A stretch of DNA of 64,000 bases from an uncultured Pseudobdellovibrionaceae bacterium (GCA_964400355.1 CAYNTO010000012.1:13290-77289); one strand, 5' to 3'. Shown: positions 3,020 through 16,854, numbered from the stretch's first letter. A program made the numbers and translations. Notes: generated by a model not told the origin, from the letters alone.

Positions 3020-3997
3020 TTAAGCATATATTCTGCGAGCGTCAGGATGGGTGCTTTTCCACAAAAAAGAATCGAAAAAATAATGGCAGAATAACGGTGT
3101 GAGCAATAGTGCTGTGGTGAATGCCTGACCGTTGGAGCTCAGATCAAGCCACTCGTCCTCGACCCAATATTCGGCACTCCCAAAAATAAACGCCGTCAAA
3201 ACAACAACCGCAAGAGGGACGAAACCTTTGTAGAGAGTGGGTTCTATCCGTCGCAACGAGAGATCGGTGAGAGCCAAGTAGCTAAAGCCGTGACTGACAA
3301 CCAACGGAAAAAGAATTTGCGCCGCCGTTTCGCCGTTAATAAATGCACAACCGTAAAATAACGCCGCAAAAAAAACCGATAGCGTTCGGTTAAAGTCACC
3401 GTACCGGTAGAGGCGATAGGCCTCGAAGCCCAGCCAAGAGAATGAAACCACTGTAAAAAACGCGATCGCGACGACGTATACGGAGCTGTTAGGATAAAAA
3501 AACAGTTCATCTGTGGCGTAATACGCCGCCAACTTCGGCGTTTCCCGAAAATGAAATGCCACAAAGGGGACTGCGCACAGACTGTACAAAAAAATATCAG
3601 AAACTTTACTCCATTGCTTGTTGAGCTTTTGATACCATCTGGAGATTCCTAAAAGTTGCCGCACATTGTGAAAGACTGTCGCATACACAACAAAAGCTGC
3701 CAAATATTTCCATTGGAAGTGAACCCATAGATAAAAGACGGCAAAAAATACTATGGGAACGAGCCAATAGACAGAAGTTCGTTGGCGTTCAGAGGGGCGA
3801 AAGTATGTGCGCCAGAGTGTAGCGTAAACATGGCCGGAATCGAGGACTCCCGCGGAAACAAATGAAAACACCAGTAACGCCGCCGACTGTTCGCTGGAAG
3901 GAATCCAATGGCTCAACACGATAGCCAACACGCCTGGGGCGTAGAGCATCAAGATATCGATGTAGAGCTTGCTCCAGATCATAGTTGAATTGTACAT
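3020..3997 (-). CDS. polytopic integral membrane protein (~10 TM), unknown function
   Basis: 325-aa ORF made almost entirely of hydrophobic helices. Loop motifs rich in His/Arg include GHVYATLWRTYF, FHNVRQLLG, VVSHGFSY and CHYFFDSFLWK. The ATG at 3997 lies back-to-back with the divergent ORF at 3998. An alternative ATG is at 3982. Confidence 0.6.
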   Translation of the reverse strand: MYNSTMIWSKLYIDILMLYAPGVLAIVLSHWIPSSEQSAALLVFSFVSAGVLDSGHVYATLWRTYFRPSERQRTSVYWLVPIVFFAVFYLWVHFQWKYLAAFVVYATVFHNVRQLLGISRWYQKLNKQWSKVSDIFLYSLCAVPFVAFHFRETPKLAAYYATDELFFYPNSSVYVVAIAFFTVVSFSWLGFEAYRLYRYGDFNRTLSVFFAALFYGCAFINGETAAQILFPLVVSHGFSYLALTDLSLRRIEPTLYKGFVPLAVVVLTAFIFGSAEYWVEDEWLDLSSNGQAFTTALLLTPLFCHYFFDSFLWKSTHPDARRIYA

Positions 3998-4990
3998 TTG
4001 GGGCTGAAGGAAACAATGGAATTCATGAAGAAAACGAAATGGCTAAATATTCTCAACCCCGCCCCTGCCGCAGACGCAGAGTGGGATCTCGAAAAGTTGC
4101 ACACAGCTTTTGCGGTGAGCTCTTCTGGCCTTTTTGATTACACACTGATTACATTTGGACATAAACGCCTAAACCCCTGGCCGCTTGCTCAGTATGGCAT
4201 GGGCCGCGATTCACGCTTCTCTCCCCTTATTGCGATCAACCCTATATATAATCATCCCGTGGAAACCGCCCAAAAAGTAGCTACGCTATTAGCACTGTAT
4301 TCAAACAGCATAGGCATCAATTTGATTACCGGATCGTTTTTTAATGAAATGCAATCACTCAACGAAAACACCAGTCCGCAGCAAAAACAGACGCGTCTGG
4401 TGGAGTTTTTCAAAATTTTTAGTGCCTTAATCAATGACGGCGAACTCAAAGGCTTTGCAGGCGAGCACTACAACTTTTCAACAGTACGTATTCACAGGCC
4501 GGTTGCAAGAAAGGTGGCTGTTTTTATTTCGGGGCAGTTCGCAAGCACTGTCAGCGACGAAAATGTTTATTTTATCCACAATCTGCGCCCGCAGGACAGC
4601 CTCCCCGCTGCAACTCAAAAGAATTCTGGATTAGGATTGGGAATCTGCACTCGGCCCTCCGCCGAGGAAGCTCAAGCGGCATTGGATGAACATTGGCCCC
4701 AGTCTCGTGAAGGCGAAATAATGTTTAAGCTGAGCATGGCGAACTCACAAACTCCTTGGAACATTTGGCTCAGGGAACACTTGAAAACATCCTTGCCTAA
4801 AGATGCACAGTTTTGCTTACAACCATTGATGAACTTTCGATCCTCCTCGCCCTACTTGGTAGGAAGTTATGAATTCGTGCGAACACAAATTAAAAATTAC
4901 ACTGCAAAAGGTTATGACACCTTCTTGCTCGATTTCCGCCACGAAGACTTTGCCCATCTCGAAAGGTGCCTCAAGGATTTGGGGAGCTAA
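3998..4990 (+). CDS. LLM-class (luciferase-like) flavin-dependent oxidoreductase
   Basis: The pattern NHPVETAQKVATLLALYSNSIGINLITG...RLVEFFKIFSALINDGELKGFAGEHYNF follows the luciferase-like monooxygenase core (hP..Ak..atLd..s.GR..lNlvtG ... f.GeyY). The track start at 3998 is TTG. ATG at 4016, preceded by GAAGGA, is the more likely start. Confidence 0.65.
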   Translation: MGLKETMEFMKKTKWLNILNPAPAADAEWDLEKLHTAFAVSSSGLFDYTLITFGHKRLNPWPLAQYGMGRDSRFSPLIAINPIYNHPVETAQKVATLLALYSNSIGINLITGSFFNEMQSLNENTSPQQKQTRLVEFFKIFSALINDGELKGFAGEHYNFSTVRIHRPVARKVAVFISGQFASTVSDENVYFIHNLRPQDSLPAATQKNSGLGLGICTRPSAEEAQAALDEHWPQSREGEIMFKLSMANSQTPWNIWLREHLKTSLPKDAQFCLQPLMNFRSSSPYLVGSYEFVRTQIKNYTAKGYDTFLLDFRHEDFAHLERCLKDLGS

Positions 4991-6630
4991 CGGTGAAACT
5001 CCCAACGAGTGGAACCTCAAAGATATTGGCGGCGTCTCTCCTATTTGCGTTGTTAGTCGCAACCCTTGCCAACTACTGGCTGGCAAGCTCGCAAAATATT
5101 TTAGTCCATAATACGGAGTGGGCATCTGGTAAGCCCGAGATGCAATATCTTCTCAACGGCAGTGAAACATATACGTTCACTCGTCCAGCGCTTGCTATGA
5201 ATGTGCTGAACCTTCATCCGTGGTTTGGACGCCAAGAGGTGTATAGTAAAAAACAAGGGGTACTGACGCAGTTTTCATTCGAGTTCCGAATCTCCTACAA
5301 TGTCTATATCGATGTGGAACTTTCGCGCTCAGCGGAGGGTGTGCAAGGAGTTCGAATATACAACTCTCCTTTCAAACACTCGTTTCTCTATGTCGCTAAT
5401 CGCGACGGAGCTTTTTTGGAAAAAAGAGATTTGGGCAATATCTCCATTCACCCGTTCTTGGTTTGGAATAGCGTCGCAATTAATTACATTCCGTCCACTT
5501 CAAAACTTGAAGTTCGCGTGAACGAGAATACAGCATTCAATGGGAATTTCTCTCTACGTTCGGGGAGCATTGGCTTTCGCGGAGGTAACTACCGAGCCCA
5601 GATCGACAACGTGAAGGCCTCCTTTGATAATGGCCAACAGATTCGCGACGACTTTAAATTTCAACTGCCGCGCGGAGTCTGGTGGAAACATTTCTTTCTC
5701 GCGCTTGTGAGTGCAGGATTGCTAATAGCACTTTCGGTGGCATTCGGGCGCAGACGAGGCGCCGTACGCTTTCTCGGCTACGTTTTCACACTTATCGCGA
5801 TCGTTTTTTTGTTCGATATTGTCAACTGGTCTCGACGCTCACTTGCGTTTTACGATGATATTCTTTTAGAACTCTCTACTCCGGTCAGTTACGTCGAATT
5901 TTATCGAAAGCGATTTTTTAAACACTGGTACAAGCTGGTCACAGGGCACGACATTCTAACAGATGAACACATTCGCACTATTTTTTATAGTTTGCACCCA
6001 CAAGACAAACCGGTCATTTTCAAGGGACCGTTTATTTGCGATCAGCGGTTCGGCAGCTCGTGCGAAACGGTGGAGCCTTCACGTCCCATCGCTGTACAAA
6101 AACACGCCTGCAGGATCCTCCTGCTGGGTGGATCGCGCGGTGTGGGCACGGGGGCACGTCTGCGCGACGATCCTTACTTTGTCCAGATCTATCAAAAACT
6201 GCTTACCTATCAGCTTAAATGCGATGTGATGCTATACAATTTTACAGACAACAGAACCGATAATTTTCCAGAACAAGTGGCGAGCGGCATCATCGAGCAG
6301 ATTCAACCCCACGTGATTGTACTGGATTACTTATACCGCACTGACGAAGAAGTCGGATACATGTTAAAAGTTAAAAAAATTGCTGAGACTAATACTAAGA
6401 TATTCATTTTGGACAACTATCCCTCGCGTTACTCGCGAATGCTTGCTAAGAATGGCTATAAATCGATTCCCATCTACGAGATTTTAAACGCAGCAGAGAT
6501 GAAGGGTTCCGGTTTCATAAAATGGGATCAGCATCACACCACATCTTACGGTCACAAACTGATTGCAGAAGCTGCTGTGCCTTACATTTTCGAAGCTCTT
6601 CAGCTCCATCCGGATTACATTAAAAAGTAA
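4966..6630 (+). CDS. membrane-anchored two-domain protein: N-terminal beta-rich (ConA/LamG-like?) domain, 2 TM, C-terminal SGNH/GDSL-type (DltD/AlgJ-like) domain
   Basis: TM1 is ILAASLLFALLVATLANYWL. The N-terminal domain carries RSGSIGFRGGNYRAQIDNVKASF, a lectin-fold-like G.igfr..a.iDNv pattern. Two further TMs are HFFLALVSAGLLIALSVAF and FLGYVFTLIAIVFLFDIV. The C-terminal domain has ILLLGGSRGVG (GDS-like block I) and KWDQHHTTSYGHKLIAEA (SGNH block V, DxxH). The likely true start is GTG 4993, with GGGGAG 6 nt upstream, immediately after the upstream stop at 4988..4990. Confidence 0.6.
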   Translation: MPQGFGELTVKLPTSGTSKILAASLLFALLVATLANYWLASSQNILVHNTEWASGKPEMQYLLNGSETYTFTRPALAMNVLNLHPWFGRQEVYSKKQGVLTQFSFEFRISYNVYIDVELSRSAEGVQGVRIYNSPFKHSFLYVANRDGAFLEKRDLGNISIHPFLVWNSVAINYIPSTSKLEVRVNENTAFNGNFSLRSGSIGFRGGNYRAQIDNVKASFDNGQQIRDDFKFQLPRGVWWKHFFLALVSAGLLIALSVAFGRRRGAVRFLGYVFTLIAIVFLFDIVNWSRRSLAFYDDILLELSTPVSYVEFYRKRFFKHWYKLVTGHDILTDEHIRTIFYSLHPQDKPVIFKGPFICDQRFGSSCETVEPSRPIAVQKHACRILLLGGSRGVGTGARLRDDPYFVQIYQKLLTYQLKCDVMLYNFTDNRTDNFPEQVASGIIEQIQPHVIVLDYLYRTDEEVGYMLKVKKIAETNTKIFILDNYPSRYSRMLAKNGYKSIPIYEILNAAEMKGSGFIKWDQHHTTSYGHKLIAEAAVPYIFEALQLHPDYIKK

Positions 6631-7943
6631 AGGAAGGGCGGAAGAAACTCGTCGTCACTCCAAAGTTCTACCGTGAAAATATATGCAATAACGGCTACTG
6701 CCACTATGCCAACCTGAACCGGGAATGGCCAGCGCAAATAAAAATCCAGGTTTTTTTCTTTTTCCTGTTTGTATTCAATGAGAAAATAAAACGTGAGTAG
6801 GACAGCGAGCAAAAGATAAGGGAATGTACCAATTGGCGCGAATGGACTCCACAAAAGGAACCTGTCCGGTGAAAATAATTTGTAGGCGCGGTAGCTGGAT
6901 GTGATTAATCCATTGAACGACAGCACGCAAATTAATAGCACGCCGCCCAGAATAGCTTGTGCGTGTTTAAAAGTGCTGAACTTGGTTTGAATGTAAGAAT
7001 ATAAAACAACCGCCAGCCCGTTGCCAACACCAAAGGCCAACCAGCTCCAGTCGAATCCATGCCACAATCCGATCAGAACAAACGAAACCATAACTATTAA
7101 ATATTTATTCACCTTCCGACCAAACTGGAGCATGAGAGGGAAAGAAACAAAATCGCGAATCCAGTGGCTTACCGAGATATTCCAACGATCCCAGAGGTTC
7201 AGCGGATTGGCCGCAAACAACAGTGATCGAAAATTATAAGATAAGGTCACTCCGAAAACCGCTGCAGCGCCCCTTCCGCAATCGCTGAGCATCGCAAGAT
7301 GAACATAAATCCCGAGTGTCGTGATTAAACCGTATATTACGGCATTGATGGCCGCGTAGTCCGCAAACTCTAGAAGATTGCGGAGCTCTCGGATCCAAAA
7401 GACTAGTAAGAGATATTTAAATAAACCAACAATAAATATGAGCGCTCCACTGATTATTGATTTTACATTGACGGAATTCGTACGTGTGAAGTAATCGGCA
7501 CTCTGCGACTTAAAGACATGGATGGGGCCCGCCATGAGTGCTGGGAAAAAAGTTACGTTATTGTAAAGATCGAGGACGTGTACCACAGGTTTGGCAGATT
7601 GTGACCGAATCTGCAGTAGGAAAAGCGAAAGCAGGCCAAGAATTGCAAAGCTTAACCCATAAAGGGGGATGTGTTGAGTCTCGATGAGCATTCGCAGTAG
7701 CACGAAAGCAAGCACATCAAAAGTTAAGGCAATGTAGAGCTTGCGCGGCAAAGAGGACTTGAGCAGCCAATAGTTGACAACACATATTAAAAAATGAATG
7801 CCGGCCCATTGCCAACTCCAGCTGGCATGCCACAAAATATTCATGGTAAAAAATTTCCATCGGAACCAGCTGGCCGGGAGTAAGTAAAAGGCAAAGGCGC
7901 TCAAGGCTACAAAAAAAATGAATGCGCTGGATTCGTAAGTCAT
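6615..7943 (-). CDS. MBOAT-family membrane-bound O-acyltransferase (DltB/AlgI-like)
   Basis: 442-aa polytopic protein. WDRWNISVSHWIRDFVSFPL matches the AlgI/DltB WrrWhisLs.WlRDY.y.PL block. LIGLWHGFDWSW carries the conserved MBOAT histidine. Its start forms an ATGA overlap with the upstream ligase stop. Confidence 0.85.
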   Translation of the reverse strand: MTYESSAFIFFVALSAFAFYLLPASWFRWKFFTMNILWHASWSWQWAGIHFLICVVNYWLLKSSLPRKLYIALTFDVLAFVLLRMLIETQHIPLYGLSFAILGLLSLFLLQIRSQSAKPVVHVLDLYNNVTFFPALMAGPIHVFKSQSADYFTRTNSVNVKSIISGALIFIVGLFKYLLLVFWIRELRNLLEFADYAAINAVIYGLITTLGIYVHLAMLSDCGRGAAAVFGVTLSYNFRSLLFAANPLNLWDRWNISVSHWIRDFVSFPLMLQFGRKVNKYLIVMVSFVLIGLWHGFDWSWLAFGVGNGLAVVLYSYIQTKFSTFKHAQAILGGVLLICVLSFNGLITSSYRAYKLFSPDRFLLWSPFAPIGTFPYLLLAVLLTFYFLIEYKQEKEKNLDFYLRWPFPVQVGIVAVAVIAYIFTVELWSDDEFLPPFLYFLM

Positions 7944-9244
7944 AGACGCGGTCTCATCTTTTTTAGCCGTTCTGAAAAAATATCCGCGGCGAAAATTCTC
8001 ACTACTGCGGGAATCATGTAGCTGGGCAATTGACTCTCTGAGAAATCTTTAAAGTAAGATCGAAAATTTGTCTCCTCCTCATTCTCATTGAGGACGATAT
8101 CGACACATACTGCGTTTCCAATCAAAGGATGGCGCTGAGAGTAGGCCATGACATCTTTAACAGCTGTGATTCTGGAAATGATATCTTCCAATTCGGTGGG
8201 GAAGAATTTGCGACCTCCTACATTAATAGTTCCGTCCTGGCGACCGATGATACGGAAAAAATCGTGAGGATCTCTGTCGTCCACCACATCTCCCGTGCGG
8301 AACCAACCATCCGCATCGGCGCCGCCCTCGTGATTGAGGTAACCCAACATCATACATGGAGAGCGAACACTTAGCAGCCCACCTTCGATACGAAATGGAT
8401 TGATTTCTCTGTTCAGAGTCAATCTCCAAGGCCGCTCACCGTCTGTAATGGTTTTAAGAATTCCTACCTCCGTCATTCCATAGGTATGCATCAACTCAGC
8501 TCGAGGCAAGCGCTCCTGATAAGCTCGTAAAGTAGATTCGAGCGATGGCTCCGACCCAAAGGCGATTTTGCGGAGCGGCTGCAATTTATGGCTGCATGCT
8601 GCCAGCTCGGGTCTTAATAGGTTCATAAAACTCGGAGTGGTTTGAAAGTAGTCTACCGTTTGCGCGCTGATGACATCTATGATTTCCCTCGGTGAGAGTT
8701 TGTTATCGCAAAGTGCGAGGCGGGCGCGATGTGCATAGGCCTCGAGCAGGGTTTCCAATCCGGCTATGGAATCTAGGGGTGAAAAGGCCAAAGTGGTTTT
8801 ATAATGGGGGCCGATAGTTTTGTACTTTTTGAGGAATTTTTGTAAATCGTGAAGGACAAATTTGTGACGCACGCTCAGGGAGCCCGACGTTTTGACAATG
8901 CAAGGGCTACCGCTGATCGACGACAGATCGGCAATGACATTTGTTCCACGTCCCATATACGTCATCTTCACGTCACCAAATTCGCAGTCCATTCGAGCCG
9001 CCTCGACGACATCGGCCCTATAATGGGGATCATTGTAGCGGATGGCTGAACAGATATGGAAAGGTTGATGCTCTTCCACGAGAGCAATAACCTGTGCGAA
9101 CGTGTCACGAGCGTGTGCCGCGGGAAGAACTTTTAACGTCGTATTTCCGCGCCAAAGTGTCTTGTAGTGATCCACTGATTTTACAAATTCATTGTATGTT
9201 GTTGTGGAACAGTTCGAAATTAAAAACAAATCAGCCGGCATCAC
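7940..9244 (-). CDS. ANL-superfamily adenylate-forming ligase (DltA-like carrier-protein ligase)
   Basis: Adenylation core motifs are present: KTSGSLSVRHK (degenerate A3), YGMTE (A5), GWFRTGDV (A7) and GRQDGTINVGGRKFFPTELE (A8). At 434 aa it is short for the family. The track start is GTG 9244; an ATG lies at 9241. Confidence 0.8.
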   Translation of the reverse strand: MMPADLFLISNCSTTTYNEFVKSVDHYKTLWRGNTTLKVLPAAHARDTFAQVIALVEEHQPFHICSAIRYNDPHYRADVVEAARMDCEFGDVKMTYMGRGTNVIADLSSISGSPCIVKTSGSLSVRHKFVLHDLQKFLKKYKTIGPHYKTTLAFSPLDSIAGLETLLEAYAHRARLALCDNKLSPREIIDVISAQTVDYFQTTPSFMNLLRPELAACSHKLQPLRKIAFGSEPSLESTLRAYQERLPRAELMHTYGMTEVGILKTITDGERPWRLTLNREINPFRIEGGLLSVRSPCMMLGYLNHEGGADADGWFRTGDVVDDRDPHDFFRIIGRQDGTINVGGRKFFPTELEDIISRITAVKDVMAYSQRHPLIGNAVCVDIVLNENEEETNFRSYFKDFSESQLPSYMIPAVVRIFAADIFSERLKKMRPRL

Positions 9245-9542
9245 TGGCGCCCATTTTTTTTTGGATCAATGGAATTAACGAGTCTACCCGTGCAAAGTAA
9301 TTTGTGGATGTATCTATGATCTCGTCCGTTGCAAATTCCACTTTTGTTCCAACTTTATTGCAGAGAACCTCTTCAAGAACAAAAATAAAAGCAACAAGAC
9401 CCATGGAATCCAGAAGTGCTTGGGACGTTCCATAGAGTTGTGTCGACAACTCAGGACGGACGTCTTTGAAATGCGGCGTGTTCTGCGCACACTTTTCAAA
9501 AGTAGGAACGATAATTTCTTGAAAGATCTCCTGATCTGTCAT
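9231..9542 (-). CDS. carrier protein (DltC-like phosphopantetheine-attachment protein)
   Basis: 103 aa. ALLDSMGLVAFIFVLEE has the LDSxG serine context typical of D-alanyl carrier protein DltC, rather than the DSLD context of FAS ACP. Its start forms an ATGA overlap with the upstream crotonase stop. Confidence 0.75.
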   Translation of the reverse strand: MTDQEIFQEIIVPTFEKCAQNTPHFKDVRPELSTQLYGTSQALLDSMGLVAFIFVLEEVLCNKVGTKVEFATDEIIDTSTNYFARVDSLIPLIQKKMGASDAG

Positions 9543-10264
9543 TGCGAATTCCTCAAGAACAGTGCGATTCGCTGGCGTGTCTCATTGTCTTTGGCCAACT
9601 GTGACGATTGGCGCGCACATTTTACAAGAACCTGTTTGGTAATGCCGGAATTTTTAAGCAGCATCGCTTTAGTGACCGACAACGATCGTGCAGTGGCCTT
9701 TTCAAACTGATGTTGGCAATGTTCGATGTAAGCTTGCGTATTTGCCTCTACCGCGGAGAGGAGTCCGATTTCGAGAGCTCGATCGGCAGATATCACGGGA
9801 TGTAGCAGGGCTAGCTCTGCCAAACGCCGCGAACCCATTCGCCATTGGAGAAGAGGAGTGATAATTCCTGGCGAAAGTCCTAGACGAGTCTCGGTGAGCT
9901 GATAGGAGCTCTCAGGAGTGCCTACCGCGACATCGGCAGCGGCCAAGAGTCCGAGCGCCCCGCCTGTATTTTTGCCTTTAGCAGCACTCACAATAGGCAC
10001 AGCACAAGTAAGAAATGTCCAATACATTTCCGCAAGTGGCAAAAGGTTGGCTTCTTTATAAATCCACGCCAAGTCCGCACCCGACGACAAATTTTTTCCA
10101 CGACCTTCGAGCGCGATACAACGCACCTTAGAGCTGTACTTTTTAATCAGTGCCATTAACTGCTTTGCTATTTTCGAATCCATCGCATTTGCTTTTTCGG
10201 CTCGATCGATAACAATGTGCAAACGATTATTGACCACGGAAAAATCTATATGGCTCATGCCCAC
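9539..10264 (-). CDS. enoyl-CoA hydratase/isomerase (crotonase) family protein
   Basis: LEGRGKNLSSGADL and AAKGKNTGGALGLLAAADVAV match the crotonase oxyanion-hole segments. An ATG at 10258 gives an ATGA overlap with the type III PKS stop. Confidence 0.8.
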   Translation of the reverse strand: MGMSHIDFSVVNNRLHIVIDRAEKANAMDSKIAKQLMALIKKYSSKVRCIALEGRGKNLSSGADLAWIYKEANLLPLAEMYWTFLTCAVPIVSAAKGKNTGGALGLLAAADVAVGTPESSYQLTETRLGLSPGIITPLLQWRMGSRRLAELALLHPVISADRALEIGLLSAVEANTQAYIEHCQHQFEKATARSLSVTKAMLLKNSGITKQVLVKCARQSSQLAKDNETRQRIALFLRNSQ

Positions 10265-11310
10265 CTCAAGATAGCCGTCTCGATAGTTAGGCCAGGTCCC
10301 ATTGTAATCATAACGGCATTCTCATGGGCGTTTAAGGCTTGTGAATCTTGGTACAGCTGGTAGGTAGCCAGAAAGCTCGCGCTGGATATGTTTCCGTAGT
10401 GCTTGAGAGTTTCTCTGGTGTACTTGAGCGCCTCGGGTGGTAGCTCTAGCTTTTTTTCAATAGCGTCCAGAATAGCGGCTCCGCCCGTATGGACAATCCA
10501 GAGAGTCAACTGGTTGAGCGTTAAATTCTCGCGATCGAGTAGAGAGTTTATAGGAATATGTATGTGTCGCGCCAATGTTTCGGGAGTTTTTTTATCTATA
10601 AAAAAGCAGTTGCGATTTTGCGCCGAATTGTAATCAAAACGCAACATCGGTAATGACTCGGGAATAAGATACGATTGAAACTGACTGACACGCGGATATT
10701 TTCCAGCATGTTTGCCTGAAGATTCCAATAGGGCCACCGCTATGCCGTCACCAAAAAGCGAATTGACGAGATCCGTGTTCTCGCTACCATCCAAACAGTA
10801 AATAGCAGAGCAGATCTCCGCACACACCAGCAACCCCTTGCGCCCCGGATTGTCGGCGCACCAGTTTTTAACGGCCTTTAAGCCGTTCAACCCAGCATTG
10901 CACCCCATACTGACAACATCCAGCCGCTCGCAATCAGCGCGGAGTCCTAGGGTTTTGTACAGCAGAGCTGACAAGGACGGCACAATAAAACCCGTCGAGG
11001 TGATACAGCACACAAAATCGATGTGTTGCGAGGATACATTGAGTTTATTGAGCAGTCGAGAGGTCGCTTCCCGGGTGAGCTTTAAAGACTCGTTTTTAAA
11101 TCGCTCGATGAGTTGAGAATTAGTCTCGTTACTGTGTTCCAGTGACAGGTGGCGTTTTTCAATATGAGGGTGGTTGAAAAAACGTTCGAAGCTTTTTTGA
11201 TGAGGGCCTTCGATTCTCAGCTTTTGAAAAACCTCACGTTGCGTGAATGTCTGCACCGGAAATGCACTTTCAACCCCAAGAAAATAGACTTCGCGCGACT
11301 TTTCCATCAC
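10255..11310 (-). CDS. type III polyketide synthase (chalcone/stilbene synthase family)
   Basis: The Cys-His-Asn triad sits in type III PKS contexts. VSMGCNAGLNGL corresponds to the GC.AG Cys motif. WIVHTGGAAILD corresponds to HPGGPAILD. HYGNISSASF corresponds to YGNMSSACV. GPGLTIETAIL is also present. The length of 351 aa fits the family. Confidence 0.9.
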   Translation of the reverse strand: MMEKSREVYFLGVESAFPVQTFTQREVFQKLRIEGPHQKSFERFFNHPHIEKRHLSLEHSNETNSQLIERFKNESLKLTREATSRLLNKLNVSSQHIDFVCCITSTGFIVPSLSALLYKTLGLRADCERLDVVSMGCNAGLNGLKAVKNWCADNPGRKGLLVCAEICSAIYCLDGSENTDLVNSLFGDGIAVALLESSGKHAGKYPRVSQFQSYLIPESLPMLRFDYNSAQNRNCFFIDKKTPETLARHIHIPINSLLDRENLTLNQLTLWIVHTGGAAILDAIEKKLELPPEALKYTRETLKHYGNISSASFLATYQLYQDSQALNAHENAVMITMGPGLTIETAILRWA

Positions 11311-11340: not shown

Positions 11341-12405
11341 TCAAACAGTATTGATTGAGGACATCATGTCAAATGGCTCGATTCCCACCTGCCGAAGTAA
11401 GTCGGAGTCCATCTGCTTCACCTTGCGCGAACGCAAGTCCATGTTGTCTCCGCACAGCAATTTGTCGCAGACTATGGGCATTGAAGGAAGTTGGAAATGG
11501 GGATCGCGGTAAATATTGCCTACGGATCCACCAACAAAGCAGGAGCCGCGAAAGATCTCTCCTGCAGGATCAATCTTAATGTGATCCAAGCCCGCCCAGC
11601 AGTGCCACCCCTTAAAACTGTTGCGACGATGAAATACCAAATCGTTGTAATGAAATTCCTCGCTGATGAGAACACCATCGCTGCGGGAGAAGAGTTTTAG
11701 TTTTTTTTGCCGCTCCTCCTTCATGAGTCCGATGATGGCTGCGCGCTCACTCTCTGCGAATTTGTCCTCGTACCCCACTCTTTTTACACCGGGCACTTTG
11801 GGTTCTTTATAATTTGGTCCCTTCACCATCCTCAACTCACAACGCTCGAGCTTTTGATCTTTAAATGTTTCAAACAGATACTGCACCTGCTCCGACTGCC
11901 CAGGCGCCACCATAATACGCACAATTAGAGTTTTTTGATGAGTACCAGCGACACGATTCCACTGGTTTTTCCACTCCTCCAGCTGGAGAATTTTTTCCAC
12001 ATACAGCTGAAGACGCGGCGCCATTGCCTCCAAGTGCAAACTAATCACTACACAATCCAGCAGATTAAAGAGTTCCACCAAATACTCAATGGGTCGAAAC
12101 CCGTTTGTTGTAATACTGATTACGGAAGGGTCGCGCTCGCGCATGTAGGAACACAGTTGTAAAAAATCGGGATGGAGGGTCGGCTCACCACCAGTAAGAC
12201 TCCAGCTAATGTTGCGTCCATGATGGCGCGTCAGTATATCTACGACTCTCTGCATATCCGCCAGAGGCACATGAGGTGAGCGTTGGTCATGAATAATATC
12301 ACTGCAATAGGAACAATCAAAATTGCACCTTTTTCCCACGTACCAATCCACCACCATCCCTGGTTTACGCGAAGGATAAAATAGAGCGACGGGTTGGGCG
12401 TCCAT
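11341..12405 (-). CDS. radical SAM protein with Cys-rich C-terminal (twitch/SPASM-like) extension
   Basis: GKRCNFDCSYCS is the CX3CX2C radical-SAM motif, and TGGEPTL is the SAM-binding GGE motif. The C-terminus reads HCWAGLDHIKIDPAGEIFRGSCFVGG...VCDKLLC. Confidence 0.85.
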   Translation of the reverse strand: MDAQPVALFYPSRKPGMVVDWYVGKRCNFDCSYCSDIIHDQRSPHVPLADMQRVVDILTRHHGRNISWSLTGGEPTLHPDFLQLCSYMRERDPSVISITTNGFRPIEYLVELFNLLDCVVISLHLEAMAPRLQLYVEKILQLEEWKNQWNRVAGTHQKTLIVRIMVAPGQSEQVQYLFETFKDQKLERCELRMVKGPNYKEPKVPGVKRVGYEDKFAESERAAIIGLMKEERQKKLKLFSRSDGVLISEEFHYNDLVFHRRNSFKGWHCWAGLDHIKIDPAGEIFRGSCFVGGSVGNIYRDPHFQLPSMPIVCDKLLCGDNMDLRSRKVKQMDSDLLRQVGIEPFDMMSSINTV

Positions 12406-12491
12406 TACTCTCTACGATAAGGGTGATCGATTTCGGTGGTCAAGGCGTGGCATCCTATTAGACATTGCAAAAATGAAATGTCACGGCTAGC

Positions 12492-13751
12492 GTGGAATCG
12501 ACGATGAGTGCTCAAAACCCAGATACTGACATAGTACCCTCAGCGGCCGCTACCGCTGCTCTCACGGACATAGAAAACCGAGCCACGTCGTCCCCTTCGT
12601 TTTGCGGGTTACCCTGGCGACATCTGTTTGTATCCCCCGACGGCAATGTGAAACCCTGTTGCAGGTATATACGCGGCAAAAATTTTCCCGAAGTCAGTAA
12701 CCCCGCGCAAGCATTCCACAGTACCTACTGGGAAAACCTGCGCCGGGATATGCTCCACAACAAAACAATTGCCGGTTGCGCCAAATGCGACCAGGAAGAG
12801 CGATTAAATACAAAAAGTCTGAGAGAAAAAATAAATACAGATGCCGTCTACGCCATCAACCCTTTAGAAGACAAGCCCGAGGCCCACACTCTCGAGGTGG
12901 CGTTTTCAAACACGTGCAATTTGTCGTGTATTATGTGTGATTCTCGCTTTAGCAGTGCATGGACGATGGTGGAAAAACAACTCTTTGGTAAAACGCTATA
13001 TCCAGAGAAAAAATTTCGCTTTAACGCGCAAGATTTAAACGCCTTCCCGGGCCTCCGTTTACTCAAAGTCACAGGTGGCGAACCGTTTTTAGAACATCAA
13101 ATCCATTTGGCGACTCTGAACTATATCGTCGAATTTCTCAAGCCTGAGGGTTTCCGACTGGATTACAGCACCAATCTCACCGTCCTCCCAAAACCGCAAA
13201 TCATCGAACAGTGGGCGAAGTTTGAACGCGTGGAAGTGACGCTCAGTTTGGATTCCATCTTCGAAAACGAACTCAAATACATCCGTTATCCTTCGGATGC
13301 GGCCACCATCCGTACCCATGTGCGATTTTATTTGGAGTTGATGAACCAACTCCCCAACCTCCACGTCGTAGTACGGCCAACTGTACACGTTCTCAATATA
13401 GCCAGCATGCTCTACACGATGCAGTGGTGGTACTCAGAAAAACAAAAATACGCCATTGACGACCGCTGCAAAGACTCGGTTTCTTTCTTAGCTTATCCGG
13501 AGTTTCTGCAGCCCACTGCGCTCTCCCCGGATGAACAACTTCGAGTGCGTCACCTTGTAGAAAATTTTACGATCACAAAAAGTGACCATAAGAATTTGCT
13601 GCACCACCAAACACGGCTTCTCAATTACCTGCATGAAAAGCCATTTGATCCGCGCCATGCTCAGAAACTCAAAGAATTTTTAAAAGCAATGGATTCGCAC
13701 AGAGGAACTCACTTTCGCGCACAGTTCGAATATTTAAATGATGCCCGTTAG
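12492..13751 (+). CDS. radical SAM protein with N-terminal twitch/SPASM-type Cys-rich domain (permuted order)
   Basis: The N-terminus FCGLPWRHLFVSPDGNVKPCCRY...GCAKCDQEE is a SPASM/twitch-type auxiliary-cluster signature. It is followed by FSNTCNLSCIMCDS (CX3CX2C) and VTGGEPFL. The track start is GTG 12492; an ATG lies at 12504. Confidence 0.8.
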   Translation: MESTMSAQNPDTDIVPSAAATAALTDIENRATSSPSFCGLPWRHLFVSPDGNVKPCCRYIRGKNFPEVSNPAQAFHSTYWENLRRDMLHNKTIAGCAKCDQEERLNTKSLREKINTDAVYAINPLEDKPEAHTLEVAFSNTCNLSCIMCDSRFSSAWTMVEKQLFGKTLYPEKKFRFNAQDLNAFPGLRLLKVTGGEPFLEHQIHLATLNYIVEFLKPEGFRLDYSTNLTVLPKPQIIEQWAKFERVEVTLSLDSIFENELKYIRYPSDAATIRTHVRFYLELMNQLPNLHVVVRPTVHVLNIASMLYTMQWWYSEKQKYAIDDRCKDSVSFLAYPEFLQPTALSPDEQLRVRHLVENFTITKSDHKNLLHHQTRLLNYLHEKPFDPRHAQKLKEFLKAMDSHRGTHFRAQFEYLNDAR

Positions 13752-15481
13752 TAGGGCGTGTGACGGAACTCGGTGATGCTCTCTTTACTAGTGTCGGCAA
13801 TCAATCGACCCACGATCGTTGGTCCCAGGCGTATACGACGATCGTCGCCGATATAACGATTAATTTTAAGCATATAGTCTGCCAAGGAGCCATTGTCCAA
13901 AAGGTAACCGTACATATTCTGCATAAACAATTTTGTTTCTGCTTTGCTCAATCCACTTCTTAGAAGTGCATACAGCAAATAATCATTCTGAAAAAACAAT
14001 GTTTTATCGAAACTGTAAATGCTCCACAACATTTCAAGACGTCGTTCCGATTCAGGAACGCGCTCTTCCCAACACATACCACCGATCTCATCGTAGGCAG
14101 CGATGCGGCCGTTGTCGGCCACCGCGCGGATGCGTAGGTTGTATTTTTCTGGGTCCGATGCATAATAGGTGTTAGCAAGCAGGCGAAAAATATTCACTTC
14201 GATACAGTCGTAGAGATCAGTGCGGTCTTTAATAAAATTATGAGTGAGCATATAATCTTCGACAGTTTCATGGGGAAACGCCAGGATGAGATACAATCCA
14301 CTCCAAATTCCAAATTTCTGCGCGGTCTGCAGTGTGCGGTAGACATCCTCGACTGTGGCCTGCTTATTGTTTTGCAAAAGCAGTTTGGGGCTCAAGGTTT
14401 CGGCTCCAAACCACAGCTTGACACATCCGGCTTTAGCTAAAGTTCCAAGAATTTTTTCGGAAGTATGAATCATATTCGCCGAATCGGAAAAAAAGATGCC
14501 GATGTTGGCCTCTATTATTTTTTCCGCCAACTGCACTGGAAAAATAGGCCCCAAATTGACATTGTCATTGTACCAGCGGTAATTCTCGAATCCTTTTTTG
14601 CGAAGCACAGTGAGATGATGAACGACATCATCTGCAGAGTGTGTGCGCACGGCGGTGTCTTTACCAGATTGGCAAAACGTGCATTTGTACGGGCAACCCA
14701 GAGTGTGACGATAGGGAATTAATGTCAGGGGATCTTGATCGCGCAAACGCGGCTCTTGGCGAATGAGATCTTCTGGAAACAGATCCTTGAACTCTACAAA
14801 CAAATCGGCTTTGTTGATGACGTCATATTTGGGCGTAAAATTGCTCTGGCGGAAAAGACTATTATCGACAATAAACCGATCGTTCCCGTGGAGCGGGCCT
14901 TCGCCATTGAAATAATTTTTGAGTGCTACGGGAAAGACGCCATGACTGTTGCGGGTAAAGTAGTAATCGATCGCTCGACCCGCCAATCGATCTGCAAGCT
15001 TCCGCGCATAATTGATACCCACATCTTTGATCAGCTCTTTACCGCCAGCCAAGATGATGGCGGTCGTGCGCTTACGAATTTCGGCCGCTAGCAAATTGGC
15101 GAAATGTAAAGTGCCGCGACTCATAAATGTTTCAAATCCGACCTTATCCATGGAAATGGCAACCGCATCATAGCGCTTTACGTCTCCGACAAGCTCCATG
15201 CAGTGATCCAACCAGCGTTGAACCCACATCGAAGTTTTTGCGCCATGGACTTCGGCAATAACTTGCTCGTCGTTGGTGAGTACACTTTTGTCTCCCTCTG
15301 ACAGATACTCCTCGCCACGTATCTTTGTAAGAGCCGCATTGAGGTCATAAAAATCCACTTCAAACCCGTGATGCTCAAGAGCACCAGCAACCATGGCCGA
15401 CCCCAAGCTCAGTTCCTGATACAGCTTTGGCTGAAACAGAGTGATGTTTGGACTCAAAAGAAACAGGATTTTCTTAGCCAT
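13748..15481 (-). CDS. B12-binding-domain radical SAM protein (class B)
   Basis: The N-terminal Rossmann-like segment KILFLLSPN...LGSAMVAGALEHHGFEVDFYDLN is typical of the cobalamin-binding domain. It is followed by TLGCPYKCTFCQS (CX3CX2C). 577 aa. Confidence 0.8.
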   Translation of the reverse strand: MAKKILFLLSPNITLFQPKLYQELSLGSAMVAGALEHHGFEVDFYDLNAALTKIRGEEYLSEGDKSVLTNDEQVIAEVHGAKTSMWVQRWLDHCMELVGDVKRYDAVAISMDKVGFETFMSRGTLHFANLLAAEIRKRTTAIILAGGKELIKDVGINYARKLADRLAGRAIDYYFTRNSHGVFPVALKNYFNGEGPLHGNDRFIVDNSLFRQSNFTPKYDVINKADLFVEFKDLFPEDLIRQEPRLRDQDPLTLIPYRHTLGCPYKCTFCQSGKDTAVRTHSADDVVHHLTVLRKKGFENYRWYNDNVNLGPIFPVQLAEKIIEANIGIFFSDSANMIHTSEKILGTLAKAGCVKLWFGAETLSPKLLLQNNKQATVEDVYRTLQTAQKFGIWSGLYLILAFPHETVEDYMLTHNFIKDRTDLYDCIEVNIFRLLANTYYASDPEKYNLRIRAVADNGRIAAYDEIGGMCWEERVPESERRLEMLWSIYSFDKTLFFQNDYLLYALLRSGLSKAETKLFMQNMYGYLLDNGSLADYMLKINRYIGDDRRIRLGPTIVGRLIADTSKESITEFRHTPY

Positions 15482-15538: not shown

Positions 15539-16624
15539 ATGCGTCGACATCCCTACCCTTTTTACAGCGTTTACAGAATCAGTAGCCCTAAAGGGTGCGG
15601 ACCTCATATACTCGCCCTTCACACGGAATGGGGTTCAGTGTTTAAATATCTCTCAGTTTCTGGATTCATTTTGAGTAGCATTGTGTTTTCAACCGCAGTG
15701 GCCGATGTGCCCACAATGACTCTTGACCAAATTCTCGCTGAAGCAATAAACAAGAAAAAAACGTACCTACCAGAGTTTCTCCGCGAGTCTGTAGCGCGCT
15801 GCGAACTCCATTTGACTCCAAGCAACCTGGGTCGTTCCTGCTTGGAAGAGGTTCGGGAACAAACATTTAGTATTCTCACCTGCGAGAGCACTCTATCCCG
15901 ATGGCAAGAAATGGGAGCACTCGACGACCATGACATGGATGCGATGCTCGAATCTTACCCCTCTACAGATGTGCCTCCAGACATTAAAACAGTCTTTGAA
16001 GAACTTGTAAATATCGCTGCTCGCCAGTGGCGAAATACCCCAGCGGTTCAAAAATTCCCTCTCCCCCAGTGGAGCATAGAGGCCTATGCGGCGGACTATT
16101 ACAATGCTCATGCAGGTGCCAACGGAAGCATACTCATCTCCAGCCAATTCTGGCAAACCGCTTCGCCATTTTCAGTCGATGAGATTCGTGCAATTTTAGC
16201 TCATGAAGTGGCCCATGTATTATTGAATCATTCTCTCGAACTGGGATGCCTCTACTTTGAGTGGTCCAACCAACCGAGCACCGCTTCTCTTCTGGACGCT
16301 CGGGAAATTATTCACGGTGATTTTTCGGTAACTATGGGCGCAGGCAAAGCGTGGTCCGAGCTCTCTCAAAAAAATGAATTCCGCGCTGATGCGATGGCCG
16401 TGGAGCTGCTTTACAACTTGCACTACGATGGGCTGGCGATGGCCCGCGCGATTCAAAAAATTTATGATCATTCTCCGAAAGGTGGTTTTAGCTCTGGCAG
16501 TCACCCCGACCTCCTCGACCGCGTCGAAGAGGCTCGCCGAAAAGCCACGACCTACGGACCGCCGCGAACGCTGAAAAATTCGCTCTCTAAAATAGCCTCG
16601 GCAGGCCTCACCAGAAAATCCTAA
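15539..16624 (+). CDS. M48-like zinc metallopeptidase, secreted or membrane-anchored
   Basis: ILAHEVAHVLLNH is an HExxH motif, and a downstream NEFRADAMAVELL is present. The hydrophobic segment FILSSIVFSTAVA follows a doubtful N-terminal extension. GTG 15638 is an alternative start. Confidence 0.6.
   Translation: MRRHPYPFYSVYRISSPKGCGPHILALHTEWGSVFKYLSVSGFILSSIVFSTAVADVPTMTLDQILAEAINKKKTYLPEFLRESVARCELHLTPSNLGRSCLEEVREQTFSILTCESTLSRWQEMGALDDHDMDAMLESYPSTDVPPDIKTVFEELVNIAARQWRNTPAVQKFPLPQWSIEAYAADYYNAHAGANGSILISSQFWQTASPFSVDEIRAILAHEVAHVLLNHSLELGCLYFEWSNQPSTASLLDAREIIHGDFSVTMGAGKAWSELSQKNEFRADAMAVELLYNLHYDGLAMARAIQKIYDHSPKGGFSSGSHPDLLDRVEEARRKATTYGPPRTLKNSLSKIASAGLTRKS

Positions 16625-16778: not shown

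Positions 16779-16854
<76 letters not shown>

Follow-up and report, generated by a model that had tools for sequence, protein, structure and literature searches.

What do three radical S-adenosylmethionine (rSAM) enzymes of different families do when their genes lie side by side, next to a type III polyketide synthase (PKS) gene? The question is raised by a 64,000-nucleotide stretch of DNA (hereafter the window; G000:C12:13290-77289) from an uncultured Pseudobdellovibrionaceae bacterium, a predator of the Bdellovibrio type, part of a 3.4-Mb, 55-contig Bdellovibrionota assembly. Positions 11341-15481 of the window are filled by three intact rSAM genes from three families, which we call rSAM1, rSAM2 and rSAM3. 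The three families turn up together again and again across deep divergence, and the trio is best regarded as a minimal array. From the gene neighbourhood and from distant analogy we favour, at a probability of about 0.45, the reading that it is a pared-down form of a variable multi-family rSAM array that would tailor the sugar of a cell-surface glycoconjugate (lipopolysaccharide, capsule or glycolipid).

Three rSAM genes of three families are grouped beyond chance

rSAM1 (P0001; 11341-12405, minus strand) encodes 354 aa with a core followed by a putative twitch-type domain, rSAM2 (P0002; 12492-13751, plus strand) encodes 419 aa in which the twitch domain precedes the core and is a member of NF033640, and rSAM3 (P0003; 13748-15481, minus strand) encodes 577 aa with a predicted class-B-type layout, in which the core lies between an N-terminal domain of the Rossmann-like B12 type and a C-terminal domain that is helical. 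All three score above the Pfam Radical_SAM (PF04055) gathering cut-off of 29.5 bits (58.4, 33.7, and 67.9 bits, respectively), and the three CX3CX2C motifs that an earlier note on this DNA had listed (CNFDCSYC, CNLSCIMC, and CPYKCTFC) were all confirmed in intact open reading frames (ORFs). The genome holds ~35 genes with an rSAM domain, for which ~0.004 runs of three adjacent genes are expected by chance; the grouping exceeds chance.

The genes are on alternating strands, so the trio is not one operon. rSAM1 opens a run of minus-strand genes that extends into the type III PKS, and rSAM2 and rSAM3 are convergent with a 4-nt overlap. The gaps in the cluster measure 30, 86, and 57 nt. The 86-nt gap is the divergent intergenic region between rSAM1 and rSAM2 (12406-12491), which presumably holds the promoters of both genes. 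It has 70-75% nucleotide identity to L100 and L103, which together with L104 are metagenome contigs bearing closer rSAM2 relatives (59-63% identity), and no ORF of at least 20 aa stays inside it. A promoter-like site in this gap (12443-12414, minus strand) is a consensus match only, and the promoter/terminator scan was not above shuffled expectation. In the database, rSAM2 is recorded as a 415-aa protein (P0004) whose start is ATG 12504 instead of GTG 12492; with that start the gap would be 98 nt.

Domain architecture of the three enzymes

In rSAM1, the CX3CX2C motif (CNFDCSYC; 12304-12327, minus strand) provides the predicted ligands of the SAM-cleaving [4Fe-4S] cluster. Its cysteines (C27, C31, and C34) are invariant in the family alignment, as are G72, G73, and E74 of the SAM-binding motif LTGGEPTL, S122/H124/E126, C269, and C318, with C313 nearly so; C289 is kept in all six orthologues compared. 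The four distal cysteines form the pattern C269-X19-C289...C313-X4-C318 (11452-11601, minus strand), a conserved C-terminal set that may form a twitch-type module and bears out the Cys-rich tail described in the earlier note. The module has no Pfam SPASM match and a weak profile link to SkfB and SuiB over positions 19-305. Orthologues in L100, L103, and L104 are 71-73% identical to rSAM1. The best NCBIfam scores of the protein are at most 50 bits against cut-offs of at least 180, which leaves it outside every curated family, and an exact-sequence look-up of P0001 returned nothing on record. Its own family comprises ~878 cluster representatives at 50% identity (E<=1e-10, exhaustive HMMER search). 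The best PDB matches of the family profile are viperins (E=6e-14) and MoaA, which cover only the first ~120 residues (the cluster and the SAM site).

rSAM2 scores 251.1 bits against NCBIfam NF033640 (N_Twi_rSAM; cut-off 170), its residues 34-417 aligning to positions 1-396 of 398 in the model. The core motif CNLSCIMC (12915-12938, plus strand), taken from the translation, is invariant in the family alignment. Ahead of it lies an N-terminal twitch module, C38-X17-C56C57...C96-X2-C99 (12603-12788, plus strand), which from its sequence is presumed to be an auxiliary [4Fe-4S] site, and Pfam SPASM matches residues 38-100 (26.3 bits, cut-off 21.5). C38, C56, C57, C96, and C99 and the core cysteines are invariant in 25 family members; G196 and E197 of the SAM-binding motif VTGGEPFL are invariant too. 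The earlier note had proposed a permuted, N-terminal twitch/SPASM domain, and this reading is correct because the rSAM2-family profile (positions 9-80) aligns to the C-terminal twitch domain of BtrN (4M7T residues 183-257, E=3.7e-6). The arrangement itself is already catalogued. The AlphaFold model of rSAM2 (pLDDT 89.4) has no close solved relative, the best being viperins, CteB, and SuiB. Full-length look-alikes occur among predicted phage proteins (TM 0.70-0.77), and those of vibriophages KVP40 and phi-pp2 reach TM 0.55-0.61. Residues 1-33 are modeled with low confidence and are unaligned in the family.

Direct similarity between rSAM1 and rSAM2 was considered and rejected: BLASTP of P0001 against P0002 was not significant, and the sole link is an NF033640 profile match on the rSAM1 core. 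The earlier statement that the three genes have non-paralogous architectures holds at the level of families, but both rSAM1 and rSAM2 appear to carry a twitch domain of the BtrN type.

The rSAM1 family occurs in both topologies. A motif scan of the top 150 cluster representatives placed the twitch module at the C-terminus in 86 and at the N-terminus in 33. Two loci carry one rSAM1-family gene of each topology in adjacent positions (L018:9866-11937 and L021:3001-5182), which is the arrangement expected if the permutation came through duplication and fusion of neighboring paralogues. The two topologies are also documented by L019:9938-11062, L022:9944-11002, and L023:8087-9127. A natural circular permutation of the twitch domain inside one family is relevant to the way in which a domain with an auxiliary cluster is docked on the radical SAM barrel.

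The motif of rSAM3 (CPYKCTFC; 14672-14695, minus strand), likewise taken from the translation, is invariant in the family alignment. We detected no auxiliary Cys cluster: the CX3CX2C cysteines alone are invariant among the four orthologues compared, and C353 is also invariant in a 17-protein family alignment. As to the GGE-type SAM-binding motif, GG146-147 is invariant in the latter but is sited in the N-terminal domain, not in the core. The AlphaFold model (pLDDT 86.4) gave full-length Foldseek alignments to AprD4 (6FD2), MgmA (9CCB), TsrM (6WTE), OxsB (5UL4), CysS, and TokK (E 1e-16 to 1e-12, 560-700 aligned columns, TMq 0.45-0.55). Since it aligns over its whole length with solved class-B enzymes, the modeled fold of rSAM3 is class-B (B12-type); cobalamin binding is only putative. 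The B12-binding domain that the earlier note had placed before the core is thus present as a fold in the model, but the Pfam B12-binding match (PF02310) stays below its cut-off of 32.1, with 22.4 bits over residues 25-51 only; the genome scan gave it 18.8 bits. Scores against the curated class-B NCBIfam models are all far below cut-off, and the weak matches include lipid B12-rSAM models (e.g., TIGR04072 and HpnJ/HpnR). The rSAM3 family is small, with 16 other proteins in a 5.8-billion-protein collection. Single-protein sequence searches of the PDB returned nothing useful, AprD4 being the only match, for rSAM3, and profiles were needed. AprD4 works without cobalamin despite its class-B fold.

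Cobalamin is probably available to the cell. The cobalamin genes that the earlier note had suggested looking for were found in part. Four proteins of the genome have strong B12-binding domains, and a sub-threshold match to the cobalamin riboswitch (C3:97882-98002; 27.2 versus 31.5 bits) lies just upstream of a gene for a BtuB-like TonB-dependent receptor (C3:96052-97623, minus strand), but CobS was not found in the genome, so the organism probably scavenges B12. Literature searches turned up no publication that deals with one of these enzymes, and none on the function of rSAM enzymes with an N-terminal twitch domain.

The three families recur in larger rSAM arrays

When the ORFs of 23 stretches were clustered, 17 of them fetched loci and the other 6 taken from the genome of the window itself, four recurrent families emerged: rSAM proteins with an N-terminal twitch domain (N-twitch; 36), the rSAM1 family (22), a type-3 rSAM whose motif is near residue 20 (14), and a short protein of 190 aa resembling short-chain dehydrogenases/reductases (SDR-like; 6). 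The best non-syntenic relatives of rSAM1 (38-39% identity; L013, L014, and L016) are located within arrays of N-twitch paralogues, and the array member most like rSAM2 (33-36%) is 5-8 kb away from the rSAM1 relative. Relatives of rSAM3 (41-76% identity) occur with N-twitch, rSAM1-family, or type-3 rSAM genes in four loci (L100, L106, L107, and L108). L106 (rSAM3 identity 56%) comprises two N-twitch genes, a type-3 rSAM gene, an rSAM1-family gene, an aminotransferase, and a GNAT gene; L107 (45%) has two GT2 glycosyltransferase genes, an rSAM1-family gene, a type-3 rSAM gene, and DUF6492; and L108 (43%) has an N-twitch gene and FA_hydroxylase at 2-3 kb. In L109 (41%), two methyltransferase genes are present and the contig ends just past rSAM3. 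The arrays are variable and occur in Bdellovibrionota and in other bacteria.

Within this variation the window locus looks reduced. L100 has the same layout, including the cassette that adjoins rSAM1, but carries four extra genes between rSAM2 and rSAM3, which encode an additional N-twitch rSAM, a short SDR-like protein, a protein of 544 aa, and FA_hydroxylase.

The window's genome has 14 N-twitch search matches, about nine of them distinct full-length paralogues, and two further small arrays. The second array (G000:C1:258470-265698) has two N-twitch genes, one other rSAM gene, and one rSAM1-family gene and is syntenic with the larger arrays of L014 and L106, and the third (G000:C2:303180-307870) encodes an N-twitch protein, a protein of 218 aa, a short SDR-like protein, and a type-3 rSAM. 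The N-twitch family is also greatly expanded elsewhere in the bacterial family: four genomes (G003, G007, G010, and G019) give 21-26 matches each, often in one 25-30 kb stretch, and some of the copies have in-frame stop codons. The best N-twitch matches of 60 relatives show no synteny, within 1.5 kb, with rSAM1, rSAM3, or the PKS.

A surface-glycan sugar as the favored substrate

The genes around the arrays point to sugars. The L013 array includes ManC and a DegT aminotransferase, L015 has two GT2 genes, and L017 has a nucleoside diphosphate (NDP)-sugar epimerase/dehydratase, a 2-oxoglutarate oxygenase, and a methylthioadenosine (MTA) nucleosidase. In a census of 110 non-rSAM neighbors from 14 loci, GT2 was the commonest Pfam family (5/110), followed by SAM methyltransferases, nucleotidyl transferases, AMP-ligases, and SDRs. 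The enzymes themselves are consistent with such a role: a sugar dehydrogenase, BtrN, has a homologous twitch module, the profile matches include BlsE (cytosylglucuronate decarboxylase), and the best structural match of rSAM3, AprD4, acts on an aminoglycoside sugar. A small molecule, lipid, or sugar, as the earlier note had supposed, remains the most likely kind of substrate.

Several observations weigh against a sugar-tailoring array. The three families have no member with a characterised reaction, and the chemistry proposed for them is drawn by analogy; the predicted structure of rSAM2 is only weakly like any solved enzyme (TM at most 0.39). No glycosyltransferase or nucleotide-sugar gene lies beside the window trio, the enrichment of sugar genes is modest at five GT2 genes per 110 neighbors, and most of the neighbors have no Pfam family. 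Not all relatives are found in arrays: rSAM3 relatives in two genomes (G008 and G427, 30-35% identity) are solitary among housekeeping genes, and several N-twitch paralogues of the window's genome are solitary as well. Finally, an OlsE-like FA_hydroxylase gene beside N-twitch or rSAM3 genes in L100, L103, L104, and L108 hints at a lipid.

If a sugar is the substrate, the trio would act in the cytoplasm on a nucleotide-linked or lipid-linked intermediate. Each enzyme would reductively cleave SAM at its CX3CX2C cluster, and the 5'-deoxyadenosyl radical would take a hydrogen from a carbon of the sugar. In rSAM1 and rSAM2 the twitch clusters would then accept an electron from the alpha-hydroxyalkyl radical of the sugar, as in BtrN, to give a ketone (keto-sugar), which in the fuller arrays may be re-reduced to the epimer by the short SDR-like protein. 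rSAM3 would carry out either a cobalamin-dependent methylation of an unactivated carbon or an AprD4-like dehydration.

A broader proposal, possible but doubtful, is that N-twitch, rSAM1-type, type-3, and B12-type rSAM enzymes constitute a mobile combinatorial kit for C-H editing of surface glycans, used by predatory Bdellovibrionota, other bacteria, and large phages, whose minimal three-enzyme version is here physically and transcriptionally coupled to a module for polyketide-acyl transfer (PKS plus Dlt/MBOAT/SGNH). Were this so, the cell would display a radical-edited, polyketide-acylated glycoconjugate of an undescribed kind.

The polyketide cassette and other candidate substrates

The cassette to the left of rSAM1 (3998-11310) encodes, by Pfam, an LLM oxidoreductase, an SGNH-like protein, an MBOAT protein, an AMP-ligase, a carrier protein, a crotonase, and the type III PKS. 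The earlier note had the rSAM enzymes act on the PKS product, and at least rSAM1 might tailor that product or the acyl group of the Dlt-like module. rSAM1 and the PKS share a strand, with rSAM1 lying 30 nt upstream; the arrangement is kept in L100 (73% identity), so the two genes are likely to be co-transcribed. The wider distribution of the genes, however, does not support the claim. A search with the PKS query against 401 genomes of the phylum found five other cassettes with PKS, ECH (enoyl-CoA hydratase), ACP (acyl carrier protein), ligase, MBOAT, SGNH, and LLM genes (L095-L099; 38-50% PKS identity), all in another family of the phylum, and none of the three rSAM genes is within ~10 kb of any of them. 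L103 and L104, in turn, keep the divergent rSAM1-rSAM2 pair (59-72% identity) without a cassette; there, genes for an alpha-2-macroglobulin, a secreted protein, and a membrane protein are followed by the pair and FA_hydroxylase, with the membrane-protein gene directly adjoining rSAM1. Since each occurs without the other, the cassette and the rSAM pair are separable modules. No PKS was found in 16 rSAM1-related loci by tblastn with the window PKS, nor in 14 of them by the Pfam census, and distant relatives of all three enzymes are in arrays with glycosyltransferase or nucleotide-sugar genes, not PKS genes. We regard tailoring of the polyketide or acyl group as unlikely.

The PKS/Dlt-like acylation cassette is not an obligate partner of the rSAM enzymes; at most, both would act on one surface polymer, which the cassette decorates. 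In the window and in L100, rSAM1 and the PKS are probably co-transcribed, a coupling that would be specific to this lineage. At the cassette borders, direct repeats do not exceed 8 nt, so there is no sign of a mobile-element junction.

The chances are similarly low that the substrate is a lipid of the membrane or the lipid moiety of a glycolipid, such as the acyl chains of lipid A, ornithine lipids, or sphingolipids. The FA_hydroxylase genes mentioned above (L100:12480-15575; L103:11278-12108; L108:12444-13091), whose best NCBIfam match is OlsE, below cut-off, would fit such a substrate, as would the weak matches of rSAM3 to TIGR04072 and HpnJ/HpnR, with Tes/GDGT-MAS also among the weak matches. 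However, every lipid-family score is far below cut-off, GT2, ManC, and DegT neighbors are commoner, and FA_hydroxylase has been lost from the window, the nearest copy in the genome being on another contig (C8, ~92 kb).

Less probable than either is that the enzymes are peptide or protein maturases, comparable to those of peptides that are made by ribosomes and then modified post-translationally (RiPPs), with a substrate that is encoded elsewhere or is a larger protein. Peptides are the substrates of most SPASM/twitch enzymes for which a substrate is known; the structural or profile matches include CteB, SuiB, SkfB, and EpeE; and an M48 metallopeptidase gene (15539-16624, plus strand), divergent from rSAM3, adjoins it. 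Yet the three gaps of the cluster leave no room for a precursor, as the earlier note had argued, since no ORF fits into them, and a comparison of the window with L100, L103, and L104 showed no conserved short ORF. No RiPP recognition element (RRE) domain was detected: rSAM1 begins directly with the core, and the first domain of rSAM2 is the twitch domain. Characterised maturase families fit no better: the NCBIfam models scored for RiPP and cofactor maturation (PqqE, MftC, AlbA, SCIFF, NirJ, AhbC/D, MoaA, QueE, and others) gave at most 50 bits against cut-offs of 180-850. The peptidase was also rejected as a partner in its own right; it neighbors rSAM3 only in the window and L100 and is not beside rSAM3 relatives in L093, L094, or L106-L109.

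A nucleotide or nucleic acid, modified by viperin-like or MoaA-like chemistry or in the course of DNA/RNA hypermodification, is a more improbable substrate again. It is suggested by the viperin and MoaA matches of the rSAM1 family profile, by the full-length phage look-alikes of the rSAM2 model, KVP40 and phi-pp2 included (TM 0.55-0.77), and by QueC-like and MTA-nucleosidase genes in some arrays; but the viperin/MoaA likeness ends with the N-terminal part of rSAM1 noted above, the window has no nucleic-acid modification genes, and a nucleotide-binding pocket would suit nucleotide-sugars equally.

Least probable of all is that three functionally unrelated genes are neighbors by chance, as their alternating strands and the solitary rSAM3 relatives in two genomes might suggest, given the very small number of such runs expected in the genome and the co-occurrence of all three families in L100, L106, and L107 and of two (N-twitch and rSAM3) in L108.

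Flanking genes

A membrane-protein gene next to the cassette (3020-3997, minus strand) was considered as a conserved partner and rejected, for its distant homologues are in unrelated contexts and it belongs to no Pfam or NCBIfam family. The probable start of this ORF is Met7 (MIWSKLY...), which is conserved together with the surrounding DNA in L100, L103, and L104; its family counts 93 proteins, none of which has a name or a Pfam family. On the other side, protein-level synteny between L100 and the window stops after the M48 gene. Just to the right of this gene is a tRNA-Ala(TGC) (16779-16854, minus strand), and the same tRNA sequence is found at the ends of L100 and L104. An Rfam search of the whole window detected one tRNA only.

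Significance of the locus

The rSAM2 family is catalogued, and rSAM1 and rSAM3 are outside any curated family; together the three families have hundreds to thousands of members, among them none of known reaction. As a probable radical-SAM tailoring cluster, the locus is a useful, compact entry point for experiments. A small locus with close relatives that differ from it by clean gene gains and losses offers biochemistry a simpler start than arrays of 10-25 genes. The analysis also corrects a tempting misreading, in which the rSAM genes are taken for polyketide tailors.

Comparison with known systems

The closest catalogued relative of rSAM2 is NF033640, with which it shares a full-length match and the N-terminal C-X17-CC...C-X2-C module before the CX3CX2C core. 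Because the family is a catalogue entry only, membership is silent on the reaction. RiPP maturases (anSME, CteB, SuiB, SkfB, and PqqE) resemble the present enzymes in combining a radical-SAM core with an auxiliary Cys-rich domain, and appear among the weak structural or profile matches. The window differs from these systems in the absence of an RRE domain and of a precursor gene, in a single predicted auxiliary site where they have two, and in scores that stay far short of every curated cut-off.

The rSAM3 model has a three-part fold in common with AprD4 (apramycin 1,2-diol dehydratase) and with TsrM, OxsB, MgmA, TokK, and CysS. Sequence identity to AprD4 and to the cobalamin-dependent class-B enzymes is only 14-16%, and the Pfam B12-binding match is, as described above, below cut-off.

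BtrN (2-deoxy-scyllo-inosamine dehydrogenase), the founding twitch-domain rSAM enzyme, offers the nearest analogy for the other two enzymes. It has one auxiliary [4Fe-4S] site, as is predicted for rSAM2, and acts on a sugar-type substrate. BtrN is absent from the core profile matches of the N-twitch family, where SkfB, 8VPO, BlsE, and viperin are found instead. Its cysteine pattern is C-X18-C...C-X2-C, whereas rSAM1 has C-X4-C in place of C-X2-C, and its twitch domain follows the core, whereas that of rSAM2 precedes it. The twitch domain of rSAM2 and the putative one of rSAM1 would both be of the BtrN type, carried at opposite ends of the two proteins.

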